A stretch of 64,000 nt of DNA from Amphiscolops sp. MND2022 (GCA_964187785.1 OZ076412.1:27094001-27158000); one strand, 5' to 3'; positions 7,631-43,700 are shown, counted from the first letter of the stretch. Program-made: numbers and translations. Notes: generated by a model from the sequence alone, not told the origin.

Positions 7631-7689
7631 ACGGAGTCTTGGCCAGAAATAGATCATATTCAATTCGTCAATGGCATAAATCGTGTAGA

Positions 7690-12063: not shown

Positions 12064-12076
12064 AAAGAGGGGGGAA
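12064..12076 (+). promoter_or_regulatory. Polypurine tract
   Basis: AAAGAGGGGGGAA directly before the 3' LTR. Confidence 0.9.
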
Positions 12077-18709: not shown

Positions 18710-21700
18710 ATGCTTTCCACTAAAAAAAACCTATCGAAAAACGCTCTGGCAGTAAGACGCTATGTCCGACATAGAGAATAAGGGGATGATATCAGGAAAT
18801 TTTTTTCAGGCATGATTGTGAAAGTCACTCTACCCAAAAAGAGGTAGAAGACGACTCAGACTTGTTGAGCAGCTAGGACAATAAACTCTGGTCTAGTCAC
18901 TCAAATGTCGAGGAAACTAGATGAGATAAAACTACGTCTCAAGTAGCTAATTTTGAAAGGAATAGACTCCGCAATTGTTGAGGAAGTCCTCCAACAATTA
19001 CAAAATAGCCCGGAAATTCTAATAAATGGGCTTAATACGAGGATGGACCACCGGGCTAGACAAGAAATCCGAACGCGGAACAAGCTGCAAAACACAAGAA
19101 ATTTGATCCAAAAAGGATTTCAATCACAGTAACCGTGCTTGAGACAGATCAGAGAGCTCATAAGACTATCAGATTAGTGAACTAGATTACAACTTGGTGA
19201 CAGGAAGTAACACGACCCCTTACAGTTACTGCAATCACGAGAAAACTTGCAACGCCAAGACTCAACCCGTGATGATTCTCTGAACTTAATTCACCCTGAG
19301 ATAACCCCCCAAAATACCTCTTTGACCCCATCAACCGTCTTGCCGACCTAATCGTTGGCGTGAATAAACGATCATTGGTACGAACACTGGTGTTCCGCCT
19401 ATTCAGTGCAACCAGTAGAAATTAGAAACCTAATATTTCAAGGAATTTTTCCATACCCTGATCAAAATTCAACCAGACATGACAGAAACAATGAAAATAA
19501 AACATTCCTATTTTTGCTGCGCAAAAAAGCCGTTGCAACTTTTTCGCAACATCAATTCGGATAACAGACAGACTCTGGAAAACATTCAGGCCGTTTTCTG
19601 CCGTAAATACGTAAAATCGGTGTCGAGTCACATGCTGCGGCGAGACATAGATGGCAGAGACTGGTGATCGGCCCGAACACAACGAAACTGTCTGACTTCC
19701 ATGAACAACTCAATCAGGGAGCTGAAAAAGCTCTTGACGAAAACGACTAACCTATGATTGATAGTCTGCTCTTCGCCAAATTTCCCTTGAACTGAAACTT
19801 TTAGTCAACGTGGCTGGACTCGAAAACGCCTTATATGACAAATTTGTCACGCCATTAGTGGGTGAACTCGATCTTAATGGTCGTTATAACAGTCTCAACA
19901 ATTACTACCACCCCAGCGACGTAACGTCCGGGTAGGTGCCCAATTTCGTCCGGTAATTCTTTCCAACTCCACCTGGAACAACTGCGAAAAGCCTGGACAT
20001 ACCAAGGGTAAGTGCATAAAGCTCAAAAGGAAAAAAGTGGCCAGATGCAACTCAGGACAAACTATCAAAAACTTGCGACGATGGGAAAACGAGGGGCTGG
20101 TTCTAAGCCCAAAAATTTGAATGTTGAATTGAACATGAATTGACAATTTTAAGACGGTCATAGCGTCCACTAGCCATGAGGACAACAACAACGCTCCAAC
20201 AACTTCTATTCTACAAAAACGAAAAAACTAGAATCGCCAGAACTCCATTGAATTTAAAAAAGTACGAGTCAGATAACATATTGTTTCTGACCCACCTAGT
20301 GTACCTTTTGCGAAATCTATTCAAAAATAGATGACACGCCACCCGTTGACTGGCAGAATCTGATGACGACTACCCCACTTGCACCGATAAAATGTAACAC
20401 TTGTCATGTAGACTGCACTACGATGCTCAAACCACTTGACCGTTTCCACTCATAGATAACTATATCCCTTATTTTTCTGACCCAGCTTATAGAATTGATC
20501 CTCACTGGGACGTCACTTTCTACAATCAGCATTGCATTTCTATCACAACATTGATAAACCAGAAACCGAAACAGTGCCCGATTCTACGAGATCGATGAAA
20601 CTATAAACGCCGTCTTTGACAACGCATCAGTTGATCCATGGCAGTATAGTAGTTACTTTGTACCACCGCTGACTCACGAGAAGCTGGAGAACCTGTTCAA
20701 AAAATAAGGACCACAGCTCAATCCCGCTACAGCAATGGAGGCACTCTTTGCGATCAACATAACTACGAGAGTCGTACCGCTAACGTCCAACCTTGGACTC
20801 AAATACAAACGACGGATGCCTTACTTTCCAATGGGTTTTAGCAAACTGACTTTAGTCTCGTACGCACGGGTGCACCACTATCGAGTTCAATCCGATAAGA
20901 TGATCTACGGAAGTATTTTTTATGCCCTCAGTCAATCGTTGAAGACGGCTCAGCACCTAACTTCTGGATCATAAATGTAAATGGACACCTGGATCATAAA
21001 TGCAAAAACCCCAAGAGCACTGTCGAATAAAAATTTGAGATCAGCGATATTGACTTCCACGAAATACTTATAGTAATGGACAAACTTACCACCACGCTTC
21101 CCGGTACCTAATTCTTACAATGGAGTATTTTTACTATTTTGGGCACGAGAGTAGTCCTGTCTTCGAGTAATCCTGTGTCCTCTAGTCAGAAAATATAGTG
21201 ACTCTTACCCACCCAGTGGACATTTTGCGAAAACTACTCAACACTTAATAACACGCCACCTGTTGACTGGCACCATCTGATGACGACTACCCCACTTGCA
21301 TCGATAACGTGTAACACAAGTCATGTAGACTACACTACGATGCTCAAACATCCCGACCACTTCCGCTCATACATAACTATATCCCTTACGTTTCTGACCC
21401 AGCTTAAAGTATTGATCATTACTGGGACGTCACTTTCCACAATCAGTATTGCACTTCTACCACAACATTGATAAACCTGAAACTGAAACAATGCCCGATT
21501 CTACGAGACTAATGATACTATAAATGCTGTCTTTCACAACGCGTCAATTGATCCATGGCAGTATAGTAGTTACCCAGTACCACCGCTGACTCATGACAAC
21601 TGGAGGACCCGTTCAAAAACTATAGACCACAACTGAATCCCGCTACAGCAATGGAGGCACTCTTTATCAACAACATAAACACCAGAGTTGGGAACCTGAC

Positions 21701-23830
21701 CTCGGAACCGCTGACGACCAACCTTGGACTCAAATAAAAACCACGGATGCGTTACTTTCCAATGGATTTTAGCGAAATGACTTTAGATGGCCTTGTACAC
21801 ACGGGAGCACCACTATCGTGTTCAACCCCAGAAGCTGATTTACGTAAAGTTCTATTATTAGGCCTTCCGTCAATCTTTAAAGAGGGCTCAGCACCTAAAT
21901 TCTGGATCATACACGTAAATGGACACCTTGATCATACATGCAAAAACCCCAAGAGCACTGTCGAACTGAAATTTGAGATCAGCAACATTGACTTCAATGA
22001 AATACTTTTTTACAAAGTTACCATTACGCTAAATTGACGCTAATTCTTACAACGGAATAATAGTACTATTTTTGACACGAGAGTAATCGTGAAGTCTCTT
22101 GATGCAACTAAAAACAGCGATCACAAATACACCATTGTCATGGAACCTATCTGCAGTTTGCAAAACGTAACAATTCTTCCAAAAGATAGACATGTCTTTA
22201 CGATTACTTCCCAAATGTAAGCTTACATTATTGTCACTGGCATACTTCAATTGAGCAATACAATCAATAAAGAAGTTGATGTTACTTTCTGCGACGTTCT
22301 AGCATTACAATTCTTGTGAACAACTTAACAGATAACCCACACCAAAAAAGGGTTCCTAAATGCTAGTTTCTCCTTTCTAACATCTGAGCATGTGAATAAT
22401 GTCCAACCCATCGATCAGGTGACCACAAAACAACTACTTCAGGTCATTCCAGCAAACACTGCCTTTGTTGCAAGAAGAGCATACTTTCATCCAAAAGCGC
22501 ATTTTTAAGGAAATACAAATTTTTCAAGAAATGGAAAAACACAATCCGCAAAATAACTATGAGCCAAGACGACAATTCTTGAGTCATTTCGACTGGCCGA
22601 CTCTTTGCTACAAGAGGACGAAATTGCTCGCATAGAAGACCTACTCATCAAATTTTACAATATTATCGTAAGACAGCGAATCGACATGGGCATGAATGAG
22701 GAATTCACGGTCACACGGACACCGAGAGAGACTTCCCTGTCCTTTTGCTGAATTCTTCCGACTCCTCCCGACTCCTATCAACACCAGAGAAGACATACTT
22801 GTTAAATTGGGGCTACTACACCGCTATAGCATAACAACAACGCTCCTATTTTCCAAACATGCAAGCACGATATCTGCCCTAAACAAAAACAGCGGCAAGC
22901 CGAGTCTCCTAGCGGATATCAAGGAAAACAATAAGTCAGTATCAGATGATTATATCGAAATTAACCTTCCGCTTAGCAGTCTCCCCGACGCAGCCCAACA
23001 CTTGCCAAGGAAAAAGTTTTCTTCATGTTGGTTTGTTCACTGACGTATCATTGCCTGCAAATGGTAGGACAAAGGTTATTAGAGATGTTAGCTCTCAAAT
23101 TTACGAGCAAAGCACTTGCAGACTGGAAGCTAGTACACGACCGTAGTCGAGCATTATCAGCTTTTTCACGTTTCGTTCGGCAATATTTGGACAAATCAGC
23201 AAAAGTGACCAGTGAGCCTAATATGTCGAAAGAGTTGTTGTTTTCGTTAACGATGCCGAGCGAACAGATCATCAAAAAACTCAAAGCAACGTTCAAGTGC
23301 ATCCAGAAGGGAAGCCTGAAGCTAACAATTCACAAAGGTTACTTTGGAGATATGCAATTTGATTTTCAAGGACGCATCATCACTCCTGAGCCGCAGAGGT
23401 CACGGGTGTAAAGCTATCTGCAAAATACTAAGTTCTCGAAGTCCAAAAAACATTGAAAATAAACTTGGGATTTCTAAACTTTCATCAAAAATATTTTCAA
23501 GCCTCCAAGAAGGTACGCCAAGCTAACGCCATTTTGAAAGCTACTGAAAAACAACCAAATAGCATCCGCAAACTTTTGGCAAAATGGAAAGAACACATGC
23601 CGGTTTCTAATCAAAAGTCAAAATGGCTTCAAGGGCGAACAAGTGTCAATGGCATAATTATCTACCATTGGCAGTACTCAACTATAACAGGACCTATCAT
23701 AGGAGTCTAGGATGCAAACCTTCCCAAATCTCTCACGAAAATGTCCACTATAATATCAAGGAGCCTTTCTACACCAAAATAAAGCCTAAAAGGTGCAACT
23801 TTTTCAAACTCGCAAATTTGGAATTCTAGC
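18710..23830 (+). mobile_element. Highly degenerate, internally deleted Gypsy element of the same clade as 24016-37653
   Basis: M.STK...MSDIEN Gag start at about 18710, TGGTGACAGG PBS at about 19196, DPINRLADL gag motif, AAAAAAC-TAG at 20222-20231, protease remnants, RT remnants at 22.7-23.4 kb, integrase piece WHNYLPLAVLNYN at about 23650. Confidence 0.8.
20265..22090 (+). repeat. Old tandem duplication (period about 920 bp) of the gag/pol junction and protease region
   Basis: 20265-21175 aligns with 21185-22090. Shared anchors include ctgatgacgactaccccacttgca, gttgatccatggcag/attgatccatggcag and caaaaaccccaagagcactgtcgaa. Copies are visibly diverged. Confidence 0.85.
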
Positions 23831-24015: not shown

Positions 24016-25098
24016 TGTCATGACTTTTGGTCATCCTATCGTGATCTTCATCACTTGATTGGGAAACAACAGAGCAGAGTTCCCCCTAAAGTAGTTTCGT
24101 CTACTACTGCTGGCTAAAATGGGTATTGAGTTCGTTTTCCTTGCATTTCCAGTATTTTCCTCTTCGGTGGTCCTGTTCAGTCTACTGGACCTGTTGTCCA
24201 CTTTTTCACGAAACACAGGATTTTGACTGGTCGTGGTATTACGGACATCAAGAAGAACCTTCTCACCAATACCTGAGTTTATGGTGTCTATTATCTGAGA
24301 ATTTAAGTCCTTCCTTGATTAGTCCATTTGCTTGGAAAATTCAGAATTAACTAGCCTCATGGTCTCAACAGTTGATTCACTGTTCTTCTCTACTTTTTGA
24401 GTTCAGAAGTGATCTGAGATCCTCACTGTTTTGAGCTACGTCTTGTCTAGTCCTATCAGAATCATGGTCCATTTCATCAATTCTATCTACAGAGTTACTC
24501 TCCAGTTCCTTTCTTGAGTATGAACCCAACATTATCTCTAGATTTTCTGTATCAGACATCAAGTCTACTTGTCTAGAGCGTCTTTCCTTGGCTCTTTGTT
24601 TTGTAGTTGAAGGCATTGAAGAAAAATTCCGTTCAAGCAATATTCTATTGCTAATTGGGTTAGTATTGAACTGAAACAGAAATAGTAGCGTACAAGTACT
24701 GTAATGCAAATGGTATACACAATGAGGATGATGAGACTATTGGTCCGTTCTGATAACTGCAGTATTTAGCACGTGATTGCAAGAGTTGAATGTTGTCGGT
24801 TGTGTGTTAGCAATATAATGATCCTGGTGACCTCGGGTCCCTTGTATAAATACTTGGGAGGACATGACAAGCATTTTTCCTGGTGTCAAGCTTCTAAAAA
24901 TAGCAACAAATCTGGGGTGAAAAGTCCTTGCGGACTGTTCGTCGTCATTACGTCATTTTAAAAATCGCAATACTACATGACCTAATTCTAGAATTAGATA
25001 AAAGGGAAATAAGGTGACGGCACGCCTTTCACGTCAAAATTCCCATTGACAGCTTTTGAGGGTCATATTGTTTACATAGATTAGGACTACTACAAACA
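24016..25098 (-). repeat. 3' LTR (1083 bp) containing the Gag N-terminal coding region
   Basis: TGT...ACA. Direct repeat of 36573-37653. Carries MPSTTKQRAKERRSRQ... and a TATA-like TATTTATA on the minus strand near 24845. Confidence 0.88.
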
Positions 25099-28019
25099 TT
25101 GAGAGGTCGATCTCAAGTGCTTATAGTAACTAGTCAAAAGTAACTAGTCATTGTTTATCATCACTCGTTAACACCAGTGAAGTGCCTTCAAAGACCGTCG
25201 GTCTCCGCGTCTAGTTGTGACCATCCAACAAATCAGAGTGATCTGATAAATGAAAGAATAATCCTGAATGAATCTGAATGAAAATAATAGAATGGCGAAA
25301 ACTGATGAAATTTAATGGTTGGAGTGATGGTGACTTTAACAATGAAACAAAGCAATGATATATGGGAATAATAGTTGAGTGTACGTCACTGGCAGGTTCC
25401 ATAACAACGAAAAAAAGGATGAAAGAGTTGTTAAAAGAAGTAAGAAGGCTAGTAATAATGAAATTCCTTGAATGTAGCCACGACGTCCTCTAATCTGAAT
25501 CTGATTAAAATGTACTGTAATTGAATAATTAACCGTCTTCAAAGTCAAGATTCATTTTAATAAGTAAGAGTCAGTAAATGGGACTTGTAGTCAAATTGTC
25601 GTAGAGCATAGTAAACTCAGTTTGGTAACCTACACAGTCAACACTACAGTCTTTGAATTGTTTATCTCCTTCGTTACATTTGTATTCGAAACACAATTTA
25701 TCATTCCTCTAAAGCAGATTGACCTGCTGTTTCGTAACAGGACAATTTTGCAACTTTCGTCACAGTATTAGTATCGCCAGCAGATTAGCATTCTTTGGAC
25801 TGTGAGTCTGTTCGACCTTCTTCGACATGAGTTTAAATTTGTCCCGCAGCCAACTTCAAAGAATCAATTCCAGATCAGCAACATCCTTTGCGATTCACAG
25901 ACGTCAACATCCAAGTCCAACAGTTTAGATTCGACGTTCAAATTCTGCTTGCCATTTCAGACAAACATCAGGTTGGTTCTTTCAAAATATTTTGTCAAAT
26001 TTGAGCTTGATCAGGGCTTCCCATCGACTAAGTTTTCACTTCCTCCATCGTGAAATATTCAGCCACAGGCATGAACATATAATGAACTTGCTTTCGAAAG
26101 ACTTTCAAACGCGATAAGATGGACTTTATTAGCGGAAGTGGATCGCGAAAAGTTTTTCCTTCCGTTTAGGCAAAGAAATGAGTGGCCAACCAGATCAAGA
26201 CACTACTGAAACTATGGAGATTGATGCACCGCCAACCACATGTGCGCCAGAGCCAGAAGTCACTGAGTTGCTAGCGGACAGGAGGTCCTTAGTCAAACTG
26301 TCTTCCAACACTGTTACTGAAAGTTGTGGGGCATACATTAGTCGAACAGTTGAGTTACTAGCAAGCGTCGAACCAGTTACCACGGTTCCCAATGACGAGA
26401 TTCCTGCTGAGATCAAAGCCAGCATTAGCGATCCAGTGGCAATTACTCCTGGTTTGAACGAACTGATCCCTGAAGAGAAGATGCCCGAAAGTGTCCCTAG
26501 AGTTGTCTTCTTGGACAAGCCCGATACCCAGATCACACCGTCTCAAGCCACTGTGAGAGACCAAAATATACTAGAAAATGCTGTGGCGACTGAACAACCC
26601 ACATTGATGCCTGATTCAGCCACGCAACCAGAACACACAGAAGAAAGAAGAACTGAAGCTTTCGTACTAAATGAGCAACGAGTCGACAGAGGGCCAATGT
26701 ACTACCGGTCCCATACGGATGATGATTCTTGCTTTGGTATGAAAAACGGCACTGGGTCACTAGCGCGATCCACACTTGCTCAGGCTCTTTAATGCTCCGC
26801 TGAGGTCCGTGACATTACCTGTCCTAATGAATCCAGCAACGAATCAAACTCTTTAGATGTACGGACTAACTCGGGCCCAAATCCCTTGTCAGCTACCAGT
26901 ACGGTCATAATAAAACATTGTTTCACTGAAACGAATCCAATCTGTCTTGACCCAGGACACCCCGTTATCGCTCCCAATCAAGAACAAATCACCAGCATCC
27001 TCAGGATCGTTGCCGACGAAAGTGCATGGGCATCATTTGAAATGCTGAATAGCGTTGTGGAACGTGCAAGCAAGCTAAATTTGGGCAGCCCTTCAAAAAC
27101 TGTCTCTCAACGCCGATCTCGTTCGCTTTCTGGACTGGATACTGATACTGATGTTGGCAGTGAATCGGCAATCTCTTATGGGACTCGGAGAGACGATGCA
27201 AGCCCAGGTATGACCAGTGAAGCAGAGTCCCATCAAGACGTCCAATCAAGTATCACCATGCCCACGCCTCCGACTATCGGCGGCAATAGACAAAAGGACC
27301 TACAATGCAATTCAAATTCGCCTGCATGTTCTAGTCCTGGCGCTCAAACACTTTCCACAGTTAGAAGAGAAGCTATTAGCGAGCAAAGGCAGACATGAAG
27401 ACAAGCTTCTACTCGAGCCAGAGCCAGAGGTCAGGCACGAGCCAGAAGGAGAGTCGGTAGGGTTATGAAGAATACTTTGAGTCCATGCCTTGGACCAGGA
27501 CCTTCGTGACAGGACTGGTTGACCCTAAATGGAACAAGCACAAAATCTATTGCCAAATCTGCAAGTGCAATGTTTCCATTCGAGCTAAGGGTCCTAAAGA
27601 AATTCTTCGACCTTATGCTACTGAGCGCCATTTGCGTAAGGACCAGCGCCGAAGGTACGAACACCTCACTATTGAAGATCCTCTGACGAAACGGCTCAGA
27701 TATCAAGTGAGAGGCAGGGACGGCAAGGTCCTCTCGAACAATCAACTGCAGTTAGAGATGCCTCTTTTCATATTTTCATAGAGAGTGAGTTAGTGGACAT
27801 TGGGGACAAGCTGCCGTTTACGACGAAGCGATGGCGGGTAGCGATTACATGGCCTCCTCGCCACAAAATTGCGCCAGAATGCAAATCTCCATCCTTGGAC
27901 ACTTCGTGCCACTGTCAGGAGACATTCAGGTTCTACGCGTTCTCTGGCAACTGATTGGTACAGTCGTCAATCACCAAGCAATTTTCAGTGACCTAGACTG
28001 GAGTACAACTAGATTCTCA

Positions 28020-28170
28020 GTAAGTAGTTCCATCACATCAAATCGACTTTGGGTCCAATTGAGTATAGAGTGTTCTAGTTTAGTGTCAATAAGCCGTCAT
28101 TCACAACTTGTACTACAGGTCTTAGGTTGTCTCTTGTACAGGATTATTCTAGTTTAGGGTTATGTTTAAG
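28020..28170 (+). other. Intron 1 of the antisense gene (151 bp, phase 0)
   Basis: GTAAGT donor at 28020 and tatgtttaag acceptor. Splicing joins TTRFS|VLFHHLF in frame. Confidence 0.7.
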
Positions 28171-28850
28171 GTGTTGTTCCATCACTTGTTCCATCAAATC
28201 ATTCCAATCCTGGGTAACGAAATTCTCACATCTGGGCAGTACTTACTTGAATTTGAACCTCAAAGTGTTTCCTTGTTGCTCCACTTACGATTCTAGAAGG
28301 CCAACAGATTGTGTTGTGTTTACTTGTCGAGGACCGGACGAATCAGTGGGCAGAATTCCGCTGAGTTGCAGATAGTTTCCACCCTCCTGGCTGCCATTTC
28401 CACTGAGGCAGATCTGGTATGCTGCTTTGGAGCGACCTACGGCCTTGTCCAAATGCTAGACCGATCTCGCTCAAGTAGACACCAACTCTGTTTGATGAAA
28501 TTGCGATTAAGAAGTTGATGCACAAGGACAGTTACAGCGTGTTTGGACGCATGGACTTCTTTTCCGTTCTGCAGTACCTAAGTTGCTGCTTGAGCAGCAG
28601 CCTGCAAATGGAATGGAACCTTTTCACCTCAGAACTGACCAAGGTTACACCCTAGGGCTACTTTCCTAAGTCTTCCCAGGGCTTAACCACACCCCAACAT
28701 AACATTTGTTCGCAGGCGATCAAGGCGGGTAATCTCGACGTGTCAGGAATCCCCACACTGTGTCAAGAGTTGATGGCCCACTTGAAATCCGTTACCAGCT
28801 TCCTGTCAACTCATGCTGCCCAACAACAGATGCAAGGGGTCAGAAATCAG

Positions 28851-28923
28851 GTATGTTGCTCTACGTTCCCCGTACTTAGGGTCGGCTATGATGAATCTCA
28901 TATAAGACTGTGTTTTCTCTCAG
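28851..28923 (+). other. Intron 2 of the antisense gene (73 bp, phase 0)
   Basis: CAG|GTATGT donor and tgttttctctcag acceptor. Splicing joins GVRNQ|PQNFEW in frame. Confidence 0.72.
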
Positions 28924-29005
28924 CCGCAGAACTTCGAGTGGTCAGTTATCCACGATGAATTCTTCCCTTGCCGACTTGAACTTTTTGGCAAATTAGTGCG
29001 AGATT

Positions 29006-29212
29006 GTGAGTACCTTCAGTCAGAGTATATTCCGTCTGCGTTAGGTCTTCGTTTAATTTTTTTGACTAGTAAAGTAGGTGGCTGATGTATGTTTCACTTT
29101 GCTTCCTTATACCGTCCTTAGAGAATCTGTAGTCCCATTATGTCTGATCGTATCAATGTGACTCTGGTTCACCATAGGCTCAGGTTCTCATTGTGCTATT
29201 TCTCTTTTCCAG
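29006..29212 (+). other. Intron 3 of the antisense gene (207 bp, phase 1)
   Basis: GTGAGT donor and atttctcttttccag acceptor. Splicing gives LVRD-Y-TTNFSL in frame with ORF 29140-29472. Confidence 0.72.
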
Positions 29213-30412
29213 ATACCACCAATTTCTCTCTCAGCCTGAGAGGACGTCGAAACAGGGCTTTCTACTCTTTCCGGCAGCTCTGCTTGTATCTTCGCAAGTT
29301 AGCTAAGCGTGTAGTCATGACCTCTGCGCTTCCGGGAGAGGATGAACTGGCAGGCATCTTGGACCTAGGCGTCGCAATTGCAACAGCGCTGAGCGTGACC
29401 GTTTTCCTCAACAGGCTAAAAGTCGGTACAACACTGGATCATGCTAGTAAACTGAAAGCAGAGCAAGAGTAGCATCAGCATAAGGGGAAGAAGTCGACCG
29501 TCAACGAGCTCAAGGACAAGGTCAAAGACGAGTTCGGGAGACTGGCCAGAAGTTACGTAACCCATCTGTTCAAAGAGACCTGAAGTCACTTCAACTTCAC
29601 CACCAACATTGCACAGGTGCTGGGCAGTTTTGATCTGGAGATAATGTTGAAGTTTCTTTTGGCTCCAGCTACCAGGTGTTACCTTGTTTGCAACATTCAG
29701 GTTGAGTGGCTATTTTACCCTCAATCAAGAGTCACAAGCCCAGGAGGAATATGTGTCTTTCATCGACGAGCTACGAGTAAAGTTTGCTGAATTTGATCAG
29801 CCCACATCGTTGGTTCCCGATACGTTTGATTTCCTCATGGAACAAATTACTTTACCAACTCGTCCCCTCTTGTTGCAAAGTTTCAAGATCCTGCTAGCAA
29901 GTTAGTTGACGTCGTACTGCCGGTCCAATCATACTTCAAGCATGTAGTCAACTCCATCGAGTCCGCCACTACCGACGCTTCCATTTTAGAGTTCCTCGCA
30001 TTGGAGTCTACTTTTGGTATTGGGGTCTACGAAGCGCCTTAAGCAACACGTATGATCCATGGTCAGGACTGGACAACTTTGGGAAGGCTGCAATTCTGTC
30101 AAAATTGGATCCTGATAATAAATATGCAAGGTGAGCAAAGGAGGAGCTTCTAGTTTATCGTCGTCCCCCAGTACCTTGAAGTACCCAAAGAAAAATGTTC
30201 GTCCAATACAACTTCTCTCTGATTCCGAAATTAGCCAGTCCGCCAAAAGCCTGCGTCAGTGCAGCAGTAAAGACTAATTGTACCTAGTGTACATATGTAA
30301 ACTTTAGACTTTGCTTTGTATTTATCTGTTGTTTGCCATTTATTTTGCCATTGTTCTTTATGGCCTTTGTATTGTATGCCACTGTGTCGTTTTGTCGACA
30401 AATATTTGTTGC

Positions 30413-30445
30413 AATAAAAAGAAAGTCAGAATAATCCTGAATAAA
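30413..30445 (+). terminator. Polyadenylation signals of the antisense gene
   Basis: AATAAA at 30413 and 30440 after a T/GT-rich 3' UTR, about 60-90 bp from the convergent pol stop at 30503. Confidence 0.55.
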
Positions 30446-30502
30446 AATGCATGTCCACAAGGGCAGATAGAGAATAGGGGACTCTATAATTTAATGTTCT
30501 GA

Positions 30503-33500
30503 CTAGTATCTGTATTTTGCAGTATAGTTGGAGGTAGGGTTAGGGCGAACGTTGTTTTTTCCTCCTCTAGGATTTTCATTTTTTAAAATCATTTCGTCAT
30601 TTTCACTTTCTAATACTTCAGGCACGATAGTATCGCGCCCCCCTGAGGGTGTTTTATCGTCATGAATTGTTTCGTCGTCACTTTTGTGCATAATTTGATC
30701 AGGAGGAGTTGCGTCGGTGATATCTCGTCTGGTGGACCGTAGGTCCACATCGGTCAAAATTTGGTCTTGCTGCTCAGCATCGTTAGCAGCGTCACTCGTA
30801 GTTTCTGCTCGTTCAGTCGTTAGCTCGCAATACGTCGACCAGACTCCAAGTCTTCAAAGTTGGATTCCCACGTAATTACGTATGAAACGTCTTGAGGAAT
30901 GACAATTTCGCCATCCAGCTGCAAGTTCCTTTCTGGGCGATTGTCCTGTAAATCGATATTCGTTTCATTTTTTCGAAGACGAATTCTGTGTAAATTTTGC
31001 GTCTTGTTGGAGTTGAGTTTTCGAACTATATAATTGTCATTCGGTAAAACCTTTTCAATGGTATAAAGTCCAATCCATCTAAATTCCCGAAATGGGAGTT
31101 TGATCCCTGATGATCAGCTGTGGGTTGTAAAATAAACACTAATCGTTGTGTTTCAAAGGCGCTGCTTTGGCCTGTCGGTCATAATATTCTTTGTACTTCA
31201 AATAGGACTGCATAATGTTTTTGTTTGTTGAATCAAGCAAGAATTGCGTTCTGCGTTGGAATTCTTCTGCAAAATCCGTTGTTGGTAACACCGTGGGATT
31301 GGGATTGAGTCCCAAATTGTGTTCCAAATAATCATATGGAATAAGGCCATGAAATATCTTTGAAGGCTCACACCCCAACGTCGAATAGTAGGACGTGTTA
31401 CATTTTAAAACTGCCAAAGTTAGGTACTTGTGCCACTGACGTCTGTACTCCCCTGAGGCCATTTTGAGATTCGTTTTTAGACTAGCATGAGTCCTTTCAA
31501 GCTTCCCTATGGTCTGCATGTGTTTTGTCGTCGCAAATCTGATTTGAATTCCCAATGTTTGTGCAATTTCAGCAATTAACTTTGACGTAAAGGCTGATCC
31601 CTTATCGATAATCAAAGTCGTTGGCAAATAAGTGTGTTTGGTCATGATGTCGATAATGACCTCAGCCGTATTTGTCGCTGAAGCATCTGTGACTGGGTAA
31701 ACGAAAAGGTAACGCGAGAAACCGTCTATAGCGGTAATGGTGTTTTCGTATCATAGGCTTGGTGGGGGGTTTGGTAAAAGGTCTAGTTGCATTGCGTCTT
31801 TTGGACCTCCGGTAGATTGAGTAACTCGGGAGTTATTAGGTCGTTGCTATTTTTTTTGTCTTTTATGCAAATTTCACATCCATTTACCCATTTGCGGACA
31901 AGATTTGCTATTCCAAGGTAATAATATTTGGATCTAATTTGCTGTAACAATTTGGCAATACCCGGATGTCGATTTGCCTTCCCGTGGAGGGATTCAAGTA
32001 ATTCGGTCACCAGGTGCTTTGGCAGCAGTACTTTATTGTAGTCGATATTTCCTGTTTCGTCATAGTACTGCCTGGTGATGATTCCGTCTTGGATGGACAT
32101 CCGGTCTAATTGACGTAGGTAGTGTTGGTATCTCGTGTCTTGTATCAAGATCGTTTCGGAATACTCTTCCTTCTGGATTTTAAGTTTAAGTTGCTGTAAA
32201 TTAACGTCATTATTTTGCTCTTTAGCCATTGTGTTATTATTGGCTAGTTTTTGACAAATTGACAGATGTTGGTAATTGCTGTTATGGGTGGAAAATTTTT
32301 CAAAAGAAATATCTTGCAATTGGTTGACAGGATTATCTCGTGCTTGTTTGTTCCGTTGCCAGATTTGCTCTTCTGTTTCGTCATCGTCTTCGGTATAGAA
32401 GATCTGTTCTTCTTCTGTGCCGCCGCGGATTGGACATGAAGTTCAGCTGGCGTTGTGGGGATGTTTTCGCTGAGGCGAAGTATTAATTTTTCATTTGGTG
32501 ACAATTCCAGGCGTGATAAGTAATCAGCAGCTGTATTATTCTTGCCGGGAATGTGTGCAATTGTGACATTGAATTGAATGACGTAATCACACGCGTTCCA
32601 AAGTGTAGGCGGAATTATCTTTGTTTGAAAAAAAACAGGTGACTGATTTGTTGCCTGTTAATTTTATCACCGGTTTTGGCGTGCCCCAAAAGATATGTTC
32701 AAATTCTTTGAAGGCAAAGAATTTTGCTAAGAATTCTTTCGCGTAAATGGACATTTTCAACTGTGCGGGACTAAAAGTCTTTGAGCCGAAAGTATATTTG
32801 AAGTATTTGAAGTATATTTCTCTTGTGGAGTTGAAGTATATTTCTCTTCGGCCATGAAGCTGGCATCAGTCATAAGGGCTATTTGTTTGTTCGGTAGCGG
32901 TTGTTTGAGTGCTAATTCACAACATCGGTCAAGGGCCTTATTTCTGTCAGTAAATTTTTCCAACAGGTCCGGTGACACCAGGACTTTTTCGTCAATTTTT
33001 AATAGTTTAAAGAATGGCGTCAGGTTTTCTGAAAGCCTGGGAAAATAATTTCAATAGTAGTTGAGAAATCCCAGGTATCGTTGTAATGCTCTCTTGGACT
33101 TTGGAAAGTTTGTGTTTTCAAGAAAATTTTGGACTCGTGGTCGTTGCAGACGTACCCCAACTGGAGTGATTGTCCGGCCTTGGAAGTCCATTTCCGTTGC
33201 ACCGAAATAACATTTGTGCATTGTGAGTTTCAATCCTGCCTCTCGGATGCATTGGAAAGTAGCCATAGGTTCTTTTTGAGCTGTGCGGCATCGTTTGCGG
33301 CAATGCCAATATCGTCGACATATTGGGCACATTGGTCAACCTTGATAACTTTGTCAAGGTATTCGCGCATACAGCTTGAAAAGGCTGATAAAGCACGGCT
33401 AAGTCCTTGTGCTAATCTGCGATATGCAAACGTTCTGCTGGCAAAACTGAATGCCAACATTTCAGTGGACCTTTGGTCCGCCATCTGCAGGCAATGGCAT

Positions 33501-35460
33501 GCTTGCGAGCAATCCAGTTTGCAAAATAGCTTTTTGCCTGCCATGTGTTGAGCTGCATCGGTCAGCGTACTGACGGGATGGTTATTATTGATGTAATCGT
33601 CAGAGATAAGATTGTTGTTTTCGCGAAGGTCGACTAGCAATCGTAATTTGCCATTAGGTTTCTTTTGGGCAAAAATCGGGCAAGCGTACTTAGAGAATGG
33701 AAGGGTTGTTATTATCCCGTATTGTTGTAAAAGTGCCAATTCTACACGGATATCTTCCTTGAGGTTGATAGGCGTTGGTAGGTTTTGGCCATAGACCGGG
33801 AAATCATTTTTTGGGATTAATTTAACCTTGACTTCCACATTCATGCCTATGTCGAATCTGTGTCTAGCGAATTTGTCATGAAATTCGACTAGCATGTCTT
33901 CAATGCGTGCAATTTCTTCTGGTTGCAGCATATAACCCTGAGGGTTGAGGTTTACTAGCTCCCGAAGATTCTGTAGCTCTATAAGAAAACGTTTCTGTAT
34001 CGGTGTATGTTGTTCCGGATCCCCGGGGTCTTCCAGAACTGGGAACCAATATTTCTCTCGTAAATGTTCTAGTTTAGAAGATTTAATCAAACTGCTAACG
34101 TAAAAGGCAGCGTCTTCAGTGTTGTCCTGCAGTAGGTGCCATGTGGTCACCGGGTCAATAGGTTTGACATATTTCATCTCTCCTGGGGTCATGACAGAGA
34201 AATTAGCAACGTGCGAACCTCTCTTGAGAGTGTAAGGGTGGTCAGTGAGGTTATTCAGGTGAGTTTGAACTTGACCTGTGGTCAATGTGACCAATGTCGC
34301 ACAAAAGGCAATATCGCCATCTTCAGTGACTGCCTTACTCGGCCGAATGATTCTCGTAACAGCGGTGTCAACATACATTTGTCAGGTTAAAGTGACTAAT
34401 TGCCTATCATTAGGGGATCGGTGATATCCTCCCGCGTACCTATAGGCTCCATGACGTTGGTGTACTTGTGACCCGCTGTCTTCAATTGCATGGAGAAGAA
34501 CGGGAAATTTAAGACTCCTTGTCTCATATCTAAGATGGTGTTGTTTCGTTGTAGAAACGAGAGACCGATCAACGGACTCGATAATTTCTCCATTACTACA
34601 AAAATTTCGAGAAATTCTATGTCGTCGACCTTAAGTTTCAGTTCTACGGTACTCTTCGGAGTTTCCAGCAGCCCATTTCCTCCCATTATTTGAAAATTGG
34701 GCGCCAGGCCCTCTTTGACAATTGACTGAGGGGCTAATAATCGGATTTTACGTAGACCAGCTTCTGGGATTGCGCTAGATAGAGCCCCCGTGTCTACAAG
34801 GCCATCTAATGTAAGTTCGCCAAAATCCATAGGAAAATAGAGCATTCGTCGTTTATATTTGAGTCCAAGGTTGGTTGTCAGCGGTACATAGTCTGGTTCT
34901 CCATTCCTGGTGACCAGAGTGTTCACAAATTGTGCTACGACGGCTGTAGTCAAAGAGATTTGTGGTCCAGTTGGGTAGAATTGGTGTGCTTGTTCATCTT
35001 GTGGTGGTAAGGCACAAGTATCGATTTTCGTTTGCCTTGGGTCAACTAATGCCTTGGATAAGAGAAGATTTAGAGCCGCATCAGTCGCATGACAATCGGG
35101 TTCTATGTCTGTATTTGGTTTTGTAAAATTGCTATGAAAATGCAATGCATTCTGATCGTAGAGTTGAATGTCCCAGTAGGGGTTGAAATTGTAGTCGGGA
35201 ACAGTATAATAGGGGTTATAATCAGGTATTACCCATGTATTATTAGTAGGGGACGGGTATAGTTTGTAGTCAAGTCGAGTCCGTCGGACCTAAGGTCCAG
35301 GGTGTGATATTGAGTAGGGGAGGTTCTCATTTGCTGCTTCCAGTCAGCTGATGAGAATCCTTTGAGTGAAGAATAATATTCAATGTAAAATACGGTAGAA
35401 GGGTCAGATATTATATAATGTCTAACGCGTATCTTTTCATTAAATTGGAGTCGTGGAAAT
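30503..35460 (-). pseudogene. pol: pol of the giant Gypsy (PR, possible dUTPase-like insert, RT, RH, INT with GPY/F-like tail)
   Basis: LVDTGA protease, KLDCSQA and YVDD (33311-33322), RNase H TDASF, integrase H..H/C..C and IIDKGSAF...ERTH, and WIGLYTIEKVL tail at about 31050. Many frameshifts. Confidence 0.92.
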
Positions 35461-35461
35461 T

Positions 35462-35471
35462 CTAGTTTTTT
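35462..35471 (-). promoter_or_regulatory. Putative -1 ribosomal frameshift site A-AAA-AAC followed by TAG at the gag/pol junction
   Basis: AAAAAAC-TAG on the minus strand. The same heptamer plus stop occurs at 20222-20231 in the diverged sister element. Confidence 0.6.
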
Positions 35472-36560
35472 GAGTTTTTAGGATAGAAGTTGTTTGTTTA
35501 TTGTTGGTGCCACTTTGGCTGGGGGACGGTTCGTCTTGTTTGGCGTCCTCCATCTTAAGGTTTTTGGGCTCGAGGTGGGCTCCAGCGCCTTTCCAACACC
35601 GTTCCGACGGGTGGTTCGTTTTGTCGCAAGGTGGACATTTTGCACATTCTTTTTTGGTATCCTGTCCGTCGCTGCGGTGTTTTTCTTCCTTTCTTTTGAG
35701 TTTTTAGCAGTCATCCTTGACATGCCCTGGTTTTTTGCAATAGTTGCAGGTGACATTCGGATCACTGCCAGAAGAAAGAAGGCCAGTTCCCGGTCGTGTT
35801 GCTGTAGGGGCGGTAGACATTGTAGGGACAGGAATGTCGTCACCTCCCTCAAGTCCATTAAGTTCTAATTCGCGTTCTAAGTGGATGACAATTTCTTCTC
35901 ATGAGGCATTTTCTAGACGTGCCATATTGACTGACACCTTGAGTTTTGGGGGCAATTTGGCGTATACAAGGCTATCAGTCATGGCCTGGGATTTTTCGCC
36001 AAACGCTTTATCTGCTCCCTGATTAAGTTCCTCAAGGAAATCCGATAACTCCATAGTGTTTGGGTTGAACACAAGTTTGTGCCATTTGTGTTTGGCAGTT
36101 TCCTGGGATTCTGGTTTGACATACCTTCGTCTAAAGACTGCTAGTAGGTCTTTCAGCGTCTGCCGATTGGCAGAATTAATGTTGCGGAAAATTTGTAGTG
36201 CATTCTTGCGTAGTAGGGAGTGGAAATGAATGATACTCAAGTTCCGTCATTTCTGGTTGCATTTTGATCATGGTATGAAAAAGATCTTTGAAAAGTTCAA
36301 ATTTCTCTAATTTCCCATCGAATGTCAATGTGGTAGTACTGACATAACGTACCATAAGTGTTTGTGCTGATGGTTTACTGTTCATGCCAACTAACACATC
36401 CGCGAGGCGTCTGATGGGGTCAGAGTTGACGCTGGTCTCTTGGACCGGAGGGATATTTTCCGAGGGTTGACCTTTTGGTAAAATTTGATTCTGTGTGTCA
36501 GTTAGGGAGTGCATGGGTGTCCAGTAAGAAATTCAGGAACCGTACGGGGGGTAGGGTTGG

Positions 36561-36572
36561 CTCCTGTCACCA
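36561..36572 (-). promoter_or_regulatory. Primer-binding site TGGTGACAGGAG (first 7 nt match a tRNA-Trp 3' end; tentative)
   Basis: Abuts the LTR end ...CATGACA. The same TGGTGACAGG occurs at about 19196. Confidence 0.7.
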
Positions 36573-37653
36573 TGTCATGACTATTGGTCATCCTATCGTG
36601 ACCTTCATCACTTGATTGGGAAACATCAGAGCAGAGTTCCCCCTAAAGTAGTTTCGTCTACTACTGCTGGCTAAAATGGGTATTGAGTTCGTTTTCCATG
36701 CCTTTCCAGTATTTTCCTCTTCGGCGGTCCTGTTTAGTCTACTGGACTTGTGGTCCACTTCATCCCGAAACACAGGATTTTGACTGGTCGTGGTATTACG
36801 GATATCAAGAAGAACCTTCTCACCAATACCTGAGTTTATGGTGTCTATTATCTGAGAATTTAAGTCTTTCCTTGATTCGTCCATTTGCTTGGAAAATTCA
36901 GAATTAACTAGCCTCATGGTCTCAACAGTTGATTCACTGTTCTTCTTTACTATTTGAGTTCAGAAGTGATCTGAAATCCTCACTGTTTTGAGCTACGTCT
37001 TCCCTAGTCCTATCAGACTCATGGTCCATTTCATCATTTCTATCTACAGAGTTACTTTCCAGTTCATTTCGTGAGTATGGACCCACTATTACATCTAGAT
37101 TTTTTGTATCAGACATCAAGTCTACTTGTCTAGAGCGTCTTTCCTTGGCTCTTTGTTTTCTAGTTGAAGACATTATAGAAATTTCCGTTCAAGCAATATT
37201 CTATTGCTAATTGGATTAGTATTGAACTGAAACAGAAATAGTAGCGTACAAGTATTGTAATGCAATTGGTATACACAATGAGGATGATGAGACTATTGGT
37301 CCGTTCTGATAACTGCAGTATTTAGCACGTGAATGCGAGAGTTGAATGTTGTCGGTTGTGTGTTAGCAATATAATGATCCTGGGAACCTCGGGTCCCTTG
37401 TATAAACACTTGGGAGGGCATGACAAGCATTTTTCCTGGTGTCAAGATCTAAATATAGCAACAAATTTAGGGTGAAATGTCCTTGCGGACTGTACGCCAT
37501 CTATATGTCATATTAAAAATAGCAATACTACATGACCTAATTCTAAAATTAGATAAGAAGGAAGTAAGGTGACGGCCCGCCTTTCAAGTCAAAATTCCCA
37601 TTGACAGCACTTGAGGGTCATATTGTTTACATAGATTAAGACTACTACAAACA
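36573..37653 (-). repeat. 5' LTR (1081 bp)
   Basis: Direct repeat of 24016-25098, followed on the minus strand by the PBS and gag. Confidence 0.9.
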
Positions 37654-39179
37654 TTACATGTAATTGCATAATACGGACCAGCGGTCCAATCGTCTAAGTG
37701 TGACTAGGTGAGTTAGCACATAAATGAATGAATGGATGCTGTTCTCTGATTCGGTAATTAGCATGCGGACTACGCGTCCGAATTGACCATTGCGGCGGAC
37801 AATTCGAACGCGTTTCTTTTCAATTTTGCAGTTGCTTCATCTATATTGTTTATATTTTGTCGGCAAATTAAAATATCTAACTACACTGGTTTACATGTGA
37901 GAATAATTATATGCTCAAAAATATATATACGAAAGTGCATAATAGACATAGAAGTCTTATAAGCGTAATAAAATAATACCATAATTTACATGACTTGTTC
38001 CGCAATAACATTCCAAATACAGGTCGCAGTTAGGCAAGTGGACCGTCGGTCCATAAGTATATAAATTAACACAAGATTAGTTTGTAATAGCTGAAAGTTT
38101 GTAGAGTTTTCTCTAATATGGACTGGTGGATGGCGCGTCTTAGAGCGGCAATACTCCAGGTAGTACGGGTAGATCATCGCAAGTGTTGGGAGCAACTTGA
38201 TACCAATTCCCATCGCAGGGGAGAAAATCGTGATTGAGATAAACTCAACTGTTATACTGTTATGATAAATTTCCTATATCGATTTCTTTCTCATCACATG
38301 GGCGCTAGGCTTCATCATTCTTTTTTTCTCAGAATTTCTCTCGAAGACTCTTTCATCCCAGCCGTAGGTGCGTAGAAAGGTCCCCGACTCATCCCACAGT
38401 CGATTACTTGGAACGAAACAAGGCTGATAATTGCAACTACGAGGAAGGATCTGTAGGGACGTCTATTAATTCTCACACGGAGCAACGGAGACGACCTTGT
38501 AAAAGTTGTCGCTGAGTACCCGTTTCAACATCCACTGTGTCATGCTACGAGCTGGTTTCATTGACCAAACCGCTGTTCCAAACTTTTTTGACAATTTAGA
38601 ATATTGATTAACCTGATAAATTACAAATTTATACGAAACATCATTATCATCACAACAAAGTATACCACAGTTGTTTCATAACTCTATCACTAACATAATT
38701 TTATTGTTTTGTTCAAACTGGGCTGTTTTTAAGCTGTCATCTCATTTCTGCCCTGGACCGCTCATGATATCTCTCTCCCTTTGTGTTTTATCAGAAATGA
38801 TGGTCTTCACGTTTCAAGATTGAGAAACACAATGTTCTCATCAATACTTTTCATCTAATCAGTATGTTTTGAAAATCTAATAATTACCCTCTTCAACAAA
38901 GGACAGACCAAGTATACTGTTCAATTTGCAACATTGACCGTCGCGGTGGCGGTGGTGCCAGCAGGCGCAACGTCCTTGTACATAAAAAGCAGTGGTCTGT
39001 CAGCTCCCAAAGATAACCACGCAATTTTTCTCTGCAAAACATGCATATCAGAGCGACCTGTGGAAAGCGGCGCGCAGGTGTCGACTCAGTCTAACCAACA
39101 CACTACGGAATTTCCACCAAAACCTGCAGACTTCTGGAAAGTTGCGACACTCAAACACTTGCCTGTCTCGTTGTTCTAA

Positions 39180-40330
39180 AATTGGATTTGATGACACCAA
39201 ACTCAAGATTGTTTAGGCAATCATTATGTACTATGTGATCCGGAAGTGACTTTGGGGTAGGTGTAACACGCGTAGGTTCTTTTATACCTTGATAACACCC
39301 GTTCAATTTCAAAGAGTTTAAATACTTATTACCAATCGCATATGTTCCAAGTGGATCGATATTCATGTCAACCACAAGAAAACATTTGCTCATCTGACAA
39401 AAAACTTCAAGAAGAACTTCGAAGTGCTCCAAAAAGTATGGTTTATAGACCGAGGGGGGATTGTATAAGCAAACTGCGTTAATTTTTTCCTTTATTAGAT
39501 CGGTACAACTAATTGTAATGTAATTCAATTTAATCCCATTGTCAAAGTCTATTATCTCGAAAGAGAGTGATTCATGGACGTATATTGTCACACCATCTGT
39601 AGTTTTTCCTGGTTGAATTTTCATTGGTGTGCAATTATCCAAGACATTAAGGGCTTCAGGGGGTGATTGATTCAACCATCCACATTTTTGTTGCAGCAAA
39701 CTAGGGTTTGTTTATTGGTTCCAAGATACTTCTATCAATCATTCCAATTCCTCAAAAAGTCGGTGGATTGATCGCATTTTTAGGTGCAGAATCCATTCGT
39801 TTTCAACCTTGTCAGTGGTAACAGTTTTACAAACTTTTTTCACGTTTGAGCTGTAATCTTTTTTTACTTTTTAGTGTATACGTGAGAGGGCCCCCTAACA
39901 ATATTGAAGCTCGTCTTGCAAGGAGGATATATGAAATCTGGATCCCATTCATATAGGTTGAATTCTCAAAAGTGTTTTAGATTAATCAGTTTTATAAATG
40001 ACTACATTCTCATTTAATCTGGCCAGGGATTTGATATGGACTCGCAATTTTAACGCTTTGGCTAATCGCGGCCTCAACAAAGTGATGTCGTCGTTGATAA
40101 AGGTTTTTTCTCCACAATAATTTGGTGAATTTGAGTTCGTCATTTGCCCACTTTTTTCTCTGCGTGCACATTTCACAATGATCTGCGCACTTCATCTTTT
40201 TTTAAGTTTCTGATTGGTACCGGGTGATATATGCTGATGTCTGTTTTTGAAAATTGGTGTCCCACTCTCATAGCAACCTCAACAAATTTTTGATAGACAT
40301 CCTCGTCTGCTTCTTCTTTCAATCCGAATA
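39180..40330 (-). mobile_element. Older LINE fragment (ORF1 C-terminus plus APE endonuclease) of the family that builds the array
   Basis: GVTIYVHE, CLYNPP, DMNID, EPTRVT and SLPDHIV APE motifs. ORF1-like KTFINDDIT. More diverged than the array copies. Confidence 0.8.
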
Positions 40331-40339
40331 ATCCGTTAG

Positions 40340-42380: not shown

Positions 42381-42384
42381 GGGA

Positions 42385-43700
42385 TCAATTTCTTGTGTGA
42401 GCAAAAAGCGAGATCGAAATTGGATCGAAAATTTTGAGGTCGAATTGTTCCGTTTTTGCTAAGTTTTTGCTCCAGCAAAATGTTTGAATGCGTTTAAAAA
42501 GTTTTAGGTACTTTTCACTACCTAATATGGAGTCATATACGTTGGATGCACGGTCGCCCTCAACGTCGCAAAGACCAGCTCTCACTAGAATTGCTTCGCG
42601 ATCTCCGTTCCCGCTAGGTCGTAGCTCCTGCTCAACCTCGTTTAGCAATATGGGAAGATAAGCGGCCCCAAGGAGACGCGGGGCAGTACAAGAAATTGGG
42701 TCATCTCCGACAGCTCAAAACATATTCGATGAATTTTGACACGTCGAATAGTTAACGTCGAATCATAAGGTCGAAGAACAACGTTGAATCTAGTCGAACA
42801 TCCAATGTCGATTTATTGTCTAAATTATGTCGAATTTCAGTCGAATTTTTCATGTTTGTTTCATATAAAAATGGCTGATAATACCGCTACTAACTACACC
42901 AAGCAAACCTTTCCCCATCTAAAAAGAGTTCATATACGGTGTATGCACGCTCGTCCTAACCGTAGCAAGGACCAGCTCCCATTACGATTGCTTCGCGATC
43001 TCCGTTCCTGCTAGGTCTTAGCTCCTGTTCGACCTCGTTTTGCAAGATGGAAACATAAGCGGCCCCAAGGAGATACATAAGGGCAGTACAAGAAATTGGG
43101 TCTTCTCTGACGGCTCAAAACATATTCAATGAATTTTGACAGGTCAAATAGTTAACGTCGGATCATAACGTCGAAGAACAACGTTGAATCTAGTCGAACA
43201 TCCAATGTCGAAATTTTGTCTAAATTATGTCGAATTTCAGTCGAATTTTTCCTGTTTGTTTCATATGAAAATGGCTGATAATACCGCTACTAACTACACC
43301 AAACAAGCCTTTCCCCACATAATATGAGGTCATATACGGTGTATTCACGCTCGCCCTAAACGTCGCAAAGACCAGCTCCCAATTATGATCACTTCGCGAT
43401 CTCTGTTCCCGCTAAATCTTTGCTCCTGCTCGACCTCGCTTAGCAAGATGGGAACATAAGCGGCCCCAACGGGCCGCGGGGCACTAGAAGAAATGCGTGC
43501 ATATCTGAGGGCCGGAAACATTGTTATTTGCGACGCAAATGTCTTTTTGGTGATGTACCACTTGAATCGACGCAATTACTTTAACAAAGTCTTTCGACAA
43601 TGGGACTTCGACGCTTGGACGAAGTTTCAAATTCGACGGCAGGAATTCGACCTTATTATGGTTCCCTGTCACAAAGTGTGGAAGGTGTCGACACGCTACA
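42385..43700 (-). mobile_element. Composite MITE: three ~190-bp cores separated by GTCGAA-rich arms (period about 400 bp); repeated at about 45224, 48154 and 51130
   Basis: Cores at about 42530-42700, 42930-43090 and 43325-43495 are reverse complements of the cores at about 58545, 58875, 61775 and 63560. Confidence 0.75.

Follow-up and report, generated by a model that had tools for sequence, protein, structure and literature searches.

The window analysed here, a 64-kb stretch of the Amphiscolops sp. genome (G000:C4:27094001-27158000 of a 1.07-Gb assembly), contains a copy of a Ty3/Gypsy retrotransposon in which an additional gene, antisense to gag-pol, is located between pol and the 3' long terminal repeat (LTR). 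Comparison with related copies indicates that this antisense gene is almost certainly integral to the element and spliced; it appears to have six exons and five introns, and its product would be ~1,260 residues long by exon-length arithmetic. Gag, protease, reverse transcriptase (RT) and integrase are encoded on the minus strand of the window in Gypsy order (Pfam gag-asp_proteas, RVT_1, Integrase_H2C2, rve), which verifies the arrangement given in the original prediction, that of a plus-strand gene opposite gag-pol, with the pol stop (30503) on one side and the left repeat on the other. The same prediction proposed an integral accessory gene propagated by retrotransposition, and this is borne out by purifying selection, clades in common with integrase, and precise intron losses.

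Genomic position and exon structure of the antisense gene

The genome was searched at the DNA level with the zinc-finger region of the gene (40 best-scored matches of 332 candidates) and at the protein level with the last exon and four database relatives (best 128, 107, 110, 100, and 134 of ~7,000-7,800 candidates each, with overlapping lists). The family comprises at least several hundred loci in the genome. Around the matches, 28 stretches of 19-20 kb and nine of 10 kb were fetched, spanning 100% to 20% protein identity; in all 37 of these segment-selected loci the segment is antisense to a Gypsy pol and adjoins its 3' end, down to 20-25% protein identity. In the reverse test, the last exon was found on the opposite strand within 1.5 kb in 28 of 30 loci picked by pol DNA, which are not independent, many being from the same young subfamily; the two misses are L166, where pol and the gene are kept apart by an insertion, and L169.

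Complete copies are 15.5-16.4 kb long, with one internally deleted copy of 12.3 kb, such that "giant", as the element was originally described, is a generous term. The LTRs are ~1.45-1.9 kb with TG...CA ends, and the pairs are 95-100% identical in 21 copies; in these two-LTR copies, a conserved TGG-starting motif lies beside the 5' LTR and a short G-rich stretch beside the 3' LTR. Target-site duplications (TSDs) of 5 bp were identified by script in 18 of the 21 copies (L037 and L039 also by eye; L113 is doubtful), a count that leaves out 7 of 28 copies in which no LTR pair or primer-binding site (PBS) was parsed. Based on its LTRs, gag-pol domain order, and 5-bp TSD (4-6 bp being usual for the group), the element belongs to Ty3/Gypsy, and the 5-bp TSDs indicate that insertions are made by the element's integrase rather than by an enzyme of the hAT transposase type. 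An independent hAT transposon would have TIRs and an 8-bp TSD around the transposase gene. In the three copies tested, the gene is surrounded by short, chance-level inverted pairs only, none of them shared, consistent with the earlier statement that no terminal inverted repeat (TIR) or TSD bounds it. The observations named in the original prediction as contrary to it were not made: the segment is at the same place in 37/37 segment-picked and 28/30 pol-picked loci rather than lacking from other copies, no fetched locus holds a free-standing DNA transposon copy with its own TIRs, and paired LTRs with 5-bp TSDs enclose the segment in 18/21 copies, as opposed to LTRs from separate insertions.

Some copies are rearranged. 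A head-to-tail array with a period of 14,673 nt is present at G000:C7:62496668-62526631 (L159, L160), where neighbours share one LTR with no TSD between them, and match spacings of 14.2-14.5 kb on C9, C12, C13, and C3 suggest further arrays. The 12.3-kb copy (L083+L084) has lost most of pol and retains gag, the antisense gene, the sense open reading frame (ORF) described below as ORF3, and the TSD; another copy (L047+L048) carries an internal inversion.

On the plus strand of the window, the end of exon 0 (25940-25971) is followed by intron 0 (25972-26169; 198 nt, 187-203 nt in other copies) and by exon 1 (26170-28019), which contains an ATG at 26178, the finger (~27550-27630), and a helical domain. 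Downstream are intron 1 (28020-28170; 151 nt, phase 0), exon 2 (28171-28643; 162 codons in unbroken copies) with a predicted RNase H-like core, intron 2 (28644-28715; 72 nt, phase 0), exon 3 (28716-28850; 45 codons), intron 3 (28851-28923; 73 nt, phase 0), exon 4 (28924-29005; 82 nt), intron 4 (29006-29212; 207 nt, phase 1), and exon 5 (29213-30277; ~380 codons in unbroken copies). The previously proposed junctions 28019/28171, 28850/28924, and 29005/29213, with phases 0, 0, 1, are the very ones recovered from an alignment of 20 copies (L047 left out owing to its internal inversion); the proposed count of three coding introns fell short by one, the 72-nt intron at 28644-28715 having been overlooked.

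Intron 1 begins with GT and ends with AG in 20/20 copies of this alignment; the donor of intron 2 is GT in 19 copies and GC in one, with AG at its acceptor in all 20; intron 3 has both in 18 of the 19 copies that possess the intron, and intron 4 has GT in 18 and AG in 19. In a set of 10 divergent copies, GT is present at the four donors in 10, 9, 10, and 10 copies, respectively, and AG at each of the four acceptors in every copy; as a control, only 1/36 GT and 2/26 AG dinucleotides inside the introns are retained in all 10. The introns vary in length (116-185, 64-77, 67-76, and 67-225 nt for introns 1-4 in the 20 copies) and are 30-60% identical, vs 52-75% for the exons; exon 2 is 486 nt in 12/20 copies, and exon 4 has the same length in 18/20. 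Eight more distant copies have the same four intron positions, with intron lengths of 65-128 nt.

The acceptor just before the ATG at 26178, originally taken to imply a 5' intron, does pair with a conserved donor at 25972, retained in 24/27 rows at 187-203 nt upstream of the acceptor and changed in three. The end of exon 0 is non-coding in the window subfamily, and provides the start codon and four codons in others: 11 copies without the downstream ATG carry an in-frame ATG four codons before the intron 0 donor, and eight copies with the downstream ATG have none upstream of that donor. The window carries the downstream ATG; exceptions are L033, L039, and L121, which have neither ATG, and L091, in which the acceptor is missing. 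The compensating start codons across intron 0 overturn a candidate reading in which a conserved ATG at 26119 is the start and the 5' acceptor is coding; the 17 codons from this ATG to the acceptor are open and free of indels in most copies. The interior of intron 0 (25972-26169) is as conserved as coding sequence, and includes motifs resembling YY1 and ETS sites; the ATG at 26119 and these motifs may represent an alternative start or an embedded promoter.

Several introns are missing from particular copies. Precise absence of intron 3 is seen in L091 and L102 and, separately, in L156 and L158, which belong to another clade whose remaining members have the intron; L153 and L155 are without intron 4. 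Intron 2 is missing from the most distant clade (L150-L155), with a fused exon of exactly 162+45 = 207 codons in the four copies measured, which may represent loss in this clade or gain elsewhere. Exact intron loss is an established outcome of recombination with spliced, reverse-transcribed RNA; the precise losses are thus indirect evidence of expression.

The gene is also subject to constraint. Between L049 and L043, the ratio of nonsynonymous to synonymous divergence (dN/dS) is 0.02 for the finger part, 0.04 for exon 2, 0.04 for exon 3, and 0.07 for exon 5, with 0.09 for pol; between L109 and L113, it is 0.05 for exon 5 and 0.16 for the N-terminal half of the gene. Most other pairs have saturated synonymous sites, with dN of 0.1-0.5. 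The integrase and exon-5 trees, built from 20 copies (8/28 left out, with coverage under 80%), share their main clades (distance rho 0.74; 7/16 splits identical); resolution of the integrase tree is poor. In these copies, exon 5 has evolved 6.5 times faster than integrase. The higher dS of the 3' region compared with pol in the same pair, and the failure of ORF3 similarities to track exon 5, suggest module swapping between subfamilies. A profile search recovered 636 clusters at 50% identity, and none of the 20 looked up has a name; two of the 636 match the Amphiscolops genome at only ~30% among the scored candidates, and probably come from other organisms.

The predicted protein, its possible origin and role

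Over the first ~450 residues of the protein, D/E make up 11-17% and S/T/P 28-34%; an R/K-rich patch comes next, and then the finger (7 copies). The finger has the pattern C-x2-C-x9-G-x2-E-x2-RH-x5-H, in which the second Cys, both His, and most other positions are invariant in 13/13 copies, and the first Cys in 12/13, across 24-63% identity. The C2H2/BED-like finger of the original prediction is upheld as a C2H2 pattern, and is unmatched by Pfam zf-BED. No Pfam family scored above cut-off in the exons scanned, and the C-terminal dimerisation domain PF05699 was matched in 0/127 exon-5 sequences at E <= 0.05. Genome searches with PF14291 and PF18658 gave no matches, and the controls were blank too. 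The exon-2 protein alignments leave out L097, L099, and L121, which contain stop codons, and alignment A3 leaves out 33/150 short matches.

In hAT transposases, a finger is followed by an RNase H-like core into which a helical segment is inserted, and then by a C-terminal helical domain. Three weak signals in the right order along the protein make descent from a hAT transposase probable. For the finger region, the named Atlas neighbours are GTF2IRD2, zf-C2H2_12, and FAM200-ZBED5 clusters (0.82-0.85), which are leads only. The exon-2 model (pLDDT 72) has the order helix, three strands, helix, strand, and its best match is the hAT transposase Hermes both in Foldseek (ranks 1-6, probability 0.99, with an E of 0.019 that is below significance) and in VIA (Z 6.5, root-mean-square deviation (rmsd) 3.2, 99 aligned, Hermes 153-264). 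The exon-5 model (pLDDT 84.6) is a helical domain with a basic tail, for which Hermes 368-609 is fifth in VIA (Z 4.5, rmsd 6.3), with 164 aligned, the longest alignment listed. Foldseek searches of the exon-5 model vs PDB and viral models gave no match at E <= 0.001, Atlas gave an uninformative best value of 0.76 for this exon, and no homolog of it was found among longer proteins.

Catalysis by Hermes requires D180, D248, and E572 (PMC2533014, in part). At the strand 1 site, as inferred by motif, the family has Glu or other residues, and at the end of strand 4 (second Asp site) Ser is present in 64/80, with Thr, Asn, Glu, Val, or His elsewhere in the family and Asp not among the five commonest residues; the distant clade has E, V, S, or H at this site. 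The catalytic DDE triad thus does not appear to be conserved, and the enzyme is predicted to be dead. The lack of a conserved Asp, the lack of a TIR pair, and the 5-bp TSDs together indicate that the protein is not mobilising anything as a hAT enzyme.

We tentatively propose, at a little below even confidence, that a catalytically dead, DNA-binding transposase derivative translated from the spliced antisense mRNA keeps the element's own promoters active or unsilenced. A hAT-like transposon or domesticated hAT gene would once have landed backwards between pol and the 3' LTR, with antisense introns that would be invisible to the spliceosome on genomic RNA and would survive reverse transcription. 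Transcription would proceed from an internal promoter upstream of exon 0, followed by splicing, and occasional recombination of spliced RNA back into the element would give rise to the precise intron losses. The protein would enter the nucleus via its basic patch and basic tail, and bind DNA through the C2H2 finger and transposase scaffold, while the acidic low-complexity half would recruit activators or block silencing at LTR or internal promoters. A regulator is favoured because of the anatomy (acidic half, basic patches, and finger), the retention across the clade, the fast but constrained evolution, and the precedents of Grande gene 23, VANC21, and DAYSLEEPER (PMC7264820, PMC8616336).

A number of points weigh against this proposal. 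Splicing is deduced from comparison of copies, and the data do not separate activating, repressing, and targeting roles. With regard to hAT descent, Arp7/9 (an actin-fold chain) nearly ties Hermes for exon 2 in VIA (Z 6.4 vs 6.5), the top VIA rows for exon 5 are unrelated helical proteins, and the Hermes matches are below significance, none reaching a Foldseek E <= 0.001. Searches with hmmsearch and hhalign vs hAT frames from 25 loci of the same genome found nothing, and profile searches found nothing meaningful vs PDB sequences and no hAT link in Pfam. The catalytic positions were placed by motif, using the hAT pattern, and not by residue-level superposition. Of the original suggestion that the gene was tamed from a hAT-like transposase, therefore, weak structure matches and motifs are in favour and sequence profiles are not.

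Other roles can be envisaged for a protein of this type. It might assist integration, with the end-binding scaffold holding the ends of the complementary DNA or tethering the pre-integration complex to chosen chromatin; selection covers the whole transposase-like scaffold and not the finger alone, and head-to-tail arrays with a shared LTR exist. We regard such a role as unlikely, given that 21 target-site 5-mers have no common motif, that evolution faster than that of integrase suggests a changing partner, and that the long acidic low-complexity half would better suit a role in transcription. Slightly less likely again is self-limitation, with copy gain kept tolerable through repression of the LTR by the protein or through interference of the antisense transcript with gag-pol. 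Domesticated transposases are often repressors. The CENP-B homologues provide an example (PMC5418596, in part), and regulation by double-stranded RNA has been raised (PMC7264820). The same idea has been discussed for retroviral antisense genes, and the convergent stops of the Amphiscolops element are 160-250 nt apart; however, cheating copies could exploit a repressor that acts in trans, and yet retention of the gene extends throughout the clade and to the youngest subfamilies, which are also the most numerous.

The remaining alternatives concern what the gene is, rather than what it does. It could be an integral, spliced gene that is not hAT-derived, with a role in RNA export or packaging, the likeness to Hermes being that of a generic RNase H-like fold with helices: every sequence-profile test was blank, and the fold scores are within the range of common arrangements. 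However, Hermes is picked by each of two exons folded separately, the matched ranges being colinear, and the named leads for the finger belong to hAT-derived families; we consider this alternative slightly less probable than either integration assistance or self-limitation. It is highly improbable that the gene is a separate DNA transposon or a host gene lodged within a single Gypsy copy, or that it is a functionless passenger. The transposase-like fold, taken alone, would fit such an origin, but 37/37 loci are in a Gypsy context, no TIR is common to the three copies tested, saturated synonymous sites are accompanied by low dN, and the position is the same at 20-25% identity. A regulatory, anti-silencing protein remains our preferred, if tentative, interpretation.

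Window copy, other element genes, and surroundings

The window copy is decayed: in the antisense gene, exon 1 (the large first coding exon), exon 2, and exon 5 are all frameshifted, exon 5 also carrying deletions, and gag and pol contain frameshifts as well. A 1,085-nt direct repeat (24016-25100 and 36573-37655, 93.6% identical) flanks the coding region; this was originally taken as a 1.08-kb LTR, but it is part of the LTR only, since alignment to whole LTRs of other copies extends the 5' LTR (in the gag-pol sense; minus strand) over 36573-38224, or ~1.65 kb. The outer ~12 nt of this right LTR are gone, and no TSD is readable in the window. The truncated 3' LTR (24016-25100, minus strand) was delimited by repeat comparison and by alignment to the closest copy, relative to which ~1.56 kb are deleted at 25100/25103, comprising the rest of the left LTR, the polypurine-tract side, and sense ORF3. 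Between this deletion and the antisense gene is a non-coding stretch (25103-25939) with short conserved blocks.

Also on the minus strand are gag (35467-37185; Retrotrans_gag E 3.7e-5; a 577-codon frame in young copies) and pol (30503-35462; protease, RT, RNase H region, and integrase; broken in the window, a 1,690-codon frame in young copies), the RNase H stretch being assigned without a separate domain scan. The putative PBS (36555-36572) has TGG straight after the terminal CA of the LTR. In all subfamilies examined, ~200 codons at the start of the gag frame lie within the LTR, and the frame continues across the PBS; the inner ~610 nt of the window 5' LTR encode the Gag N-terminus (gag match 37182-36633 inside the LTR). 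The Gag start within the LTR occupies 36573-37185 in the window and 680-1292 in L049, with a dN/dS of 0.18 for the LTR-encoded part in one pair. Thus, each solo or 3' LTR encodes an N-terminal fragment of Gag.

A spacer of 225 nt (30278-30502) separates the two convergent stops in the window. Polyadenylation signals had been proposed near the pol stop; two AATAAA motifs are indeed present, 90 and 63 nt from it, but they are not conserved, the first being kept in 1/15 other parsed copies and the second in 0/15. An inverted GTCCC...GGGAC pair (30410-30490 in the window) occurs in 14/18 copies, 18-20 nt downstream of the pol stop and with a variable loop; this may be an RNA stem or protein-binding site. 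Folding of the spacer as a consensus RNA yielded no structure.

ORF3, the sense gene of young copies, has ~270 codons and ends 30 codons inside the 3' LTR, in U3 (L049:2336-3151, minus strand); in this it is reminiscent of nef, which overlaps U3. The product is acidic, with a conserved Cys motif near the C-terminus and a dN/dS of 0.11-0.18 in three pairs, and contains hydrophobic-acidic stretches that we take to resemble SUMO-interacting motifs. It has no transmembrane segment of the kind expected for env-bearing Gypsy elements, the highest 19-residue hydropathy being 0.65-1.09 in 8 copies. ORF3 and the antisense gene are divergent across 1-1.4 kb with short conserved blocks. In the distant clade, an unrelated-looking acidic ORF is at the ORF3 position.

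The element is inserted in the integrase region of a second, more decayed Gypsy (19324-23763, plus strand; 37-60% to the element's pol), which has an internal 0.9-kb duplication; no continuation of this second Gypsy was found in 38200-42000. A further integrase-bearing element (6466-12285) is flanked by direct repeats of 200 nt (92%), and an RT frame of 478 codons is at 61998-63434 (minus strand). Four tandem units of 2.84-2.98 kb, 93-100% alike and each with a ~400-nt sub-repeat, occupy 40425-53900, with related inverted pieces at 58500-63900. A 527-codon open frame at 493-2073 (minus strand) has a Glycosyltransferase 61 domain (E 8.9e-12).

Comparison with known systems and significance

Further cases in which hosts have domesticated hAT transposases include ZBED1/DREF, ZBED5, ZBED6, and GTF2IRD2. 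In DAYSLEEPER, a host-domesticated hAT transposase, the finger and scaffold are reused for DNA binding (PMC8616336, in part); here, a retrotransposon would be the domesticating "host", and the gene is mobile and present in many copies. VANC21, an accessory protein of the Arabidopsis Mutator-like element VANDAL21, has been proposed to shield its own element family from silencing (PMC8616336, in part), although VANDAL21 is a DNA transposon and the protein is unrelated, so that the likeness to the Amphiscolops gene is one of presumed function. Antisense nuclear regulators are also encoded in the 3' region of retroviruses, as HBZ and APH-2 (PMC11963269, in part); the Amphiscolops element differs in lacking env, in its unrelated proteins, in the multi-intron structure, and in a promoter that would be internal rather than in the LTR.

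The closest likeness is to the plant Tat-clade antisense ORFs (Retand, Grande, RIRE2, PvRetro13) and to fungal Boty, in which a conserved antisense ORF is likewise present between pol and the 3' LTR in most copies (PMC7264820; PMC11963269, PMC4408406, and PMC5418596, all in part). The Grande gene-23 protein is nuclear and its gene has its own promoter (PMC7264820), and Tat extra ORFs carry domains also found with DNA transposons, TRP28 and PMD (PMC7264820; PMC11963269, PMC4408406, and PMC5418596, in part). By contrast with Tat and Grande, the Amphiscolops gene has five spliceosomal introns, ~1,260 aa, a C2H2 finger, a predicted hAT-like scaffold, and a neighbouring sense ORF, and no TRP28 or PMD Pfam match was found in any exon scanned. 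The gene would work like the Tat/Retand/Grande antisense ORFs, but is not one by domain. For the plant ORFs, it has been advised that antisense and spliced transcripts be sought, and an origin from transposable elements is described as unsupported by similarity (PMC7264820); the word "intron" is never used in the portion of PMC11963269 available to us.

With respect to size and gene capture, Ogre reaches 16-25 kb and Burro over 30 kb (PMC6431247, in part), and the bdelloid elements Vesta, Juno, and TelKA (ORF3) and planarian Burro are Gypsy elements with captured accessory ORFs (PMC5408684, PMC6431247, both in part). The extras in these elements take the form of sense ORFs or of domains within a polyprotein (env, GDSL, DEDDy, BIR), and in the portions available none is described as antisense, intron-bearing, or transposase-derived. 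The original prediction recognised no such accessory gene in metazoan Gypsy elements, and our literature search, whose scope excluded repeat databases and most subscription papers, likewise found no Gypsy element whose antisense gene bears introns or derives from a hAT transposase. Plants and fungi already provide examples of extra antisense ORFs in LTR elements.

It is possible, though less likely than not, that a Gypsy clade domesticated a whole transposase and kept it for a very long time as a host-like, intron-rich antisense gene and private anti-silencing factor. Together with the second accessory protein and the Gag start within the LTR, this would amount to a design like that of complex retroviruses in an env-less Gypsy that has spread through a gigabase genome. 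The family is a case of antisense introns outlasting reverse transcription and being lost one at a time, and it carries a warning for annotation, in that such genes will be called multi-exon host genes. Human HUSH carries out surveillance of intronless transcripts (PMC8770142, in part); if introns shield the gene from HUSH-like surveillance, then keeping them would be adaptive, although this is speculation. The exon junctions separate the accessory transcript from genomic RNA, which makes a role in silencing, targeting, or self-control testable, and dozens of subfamilies, from 100% to 20% identity, can serve comparative tests. For antisense ORFs of this kind, the Amphiscolops family offers a traceable candidate origin, in which one class of transposon may have domesticated the enzyme of another.

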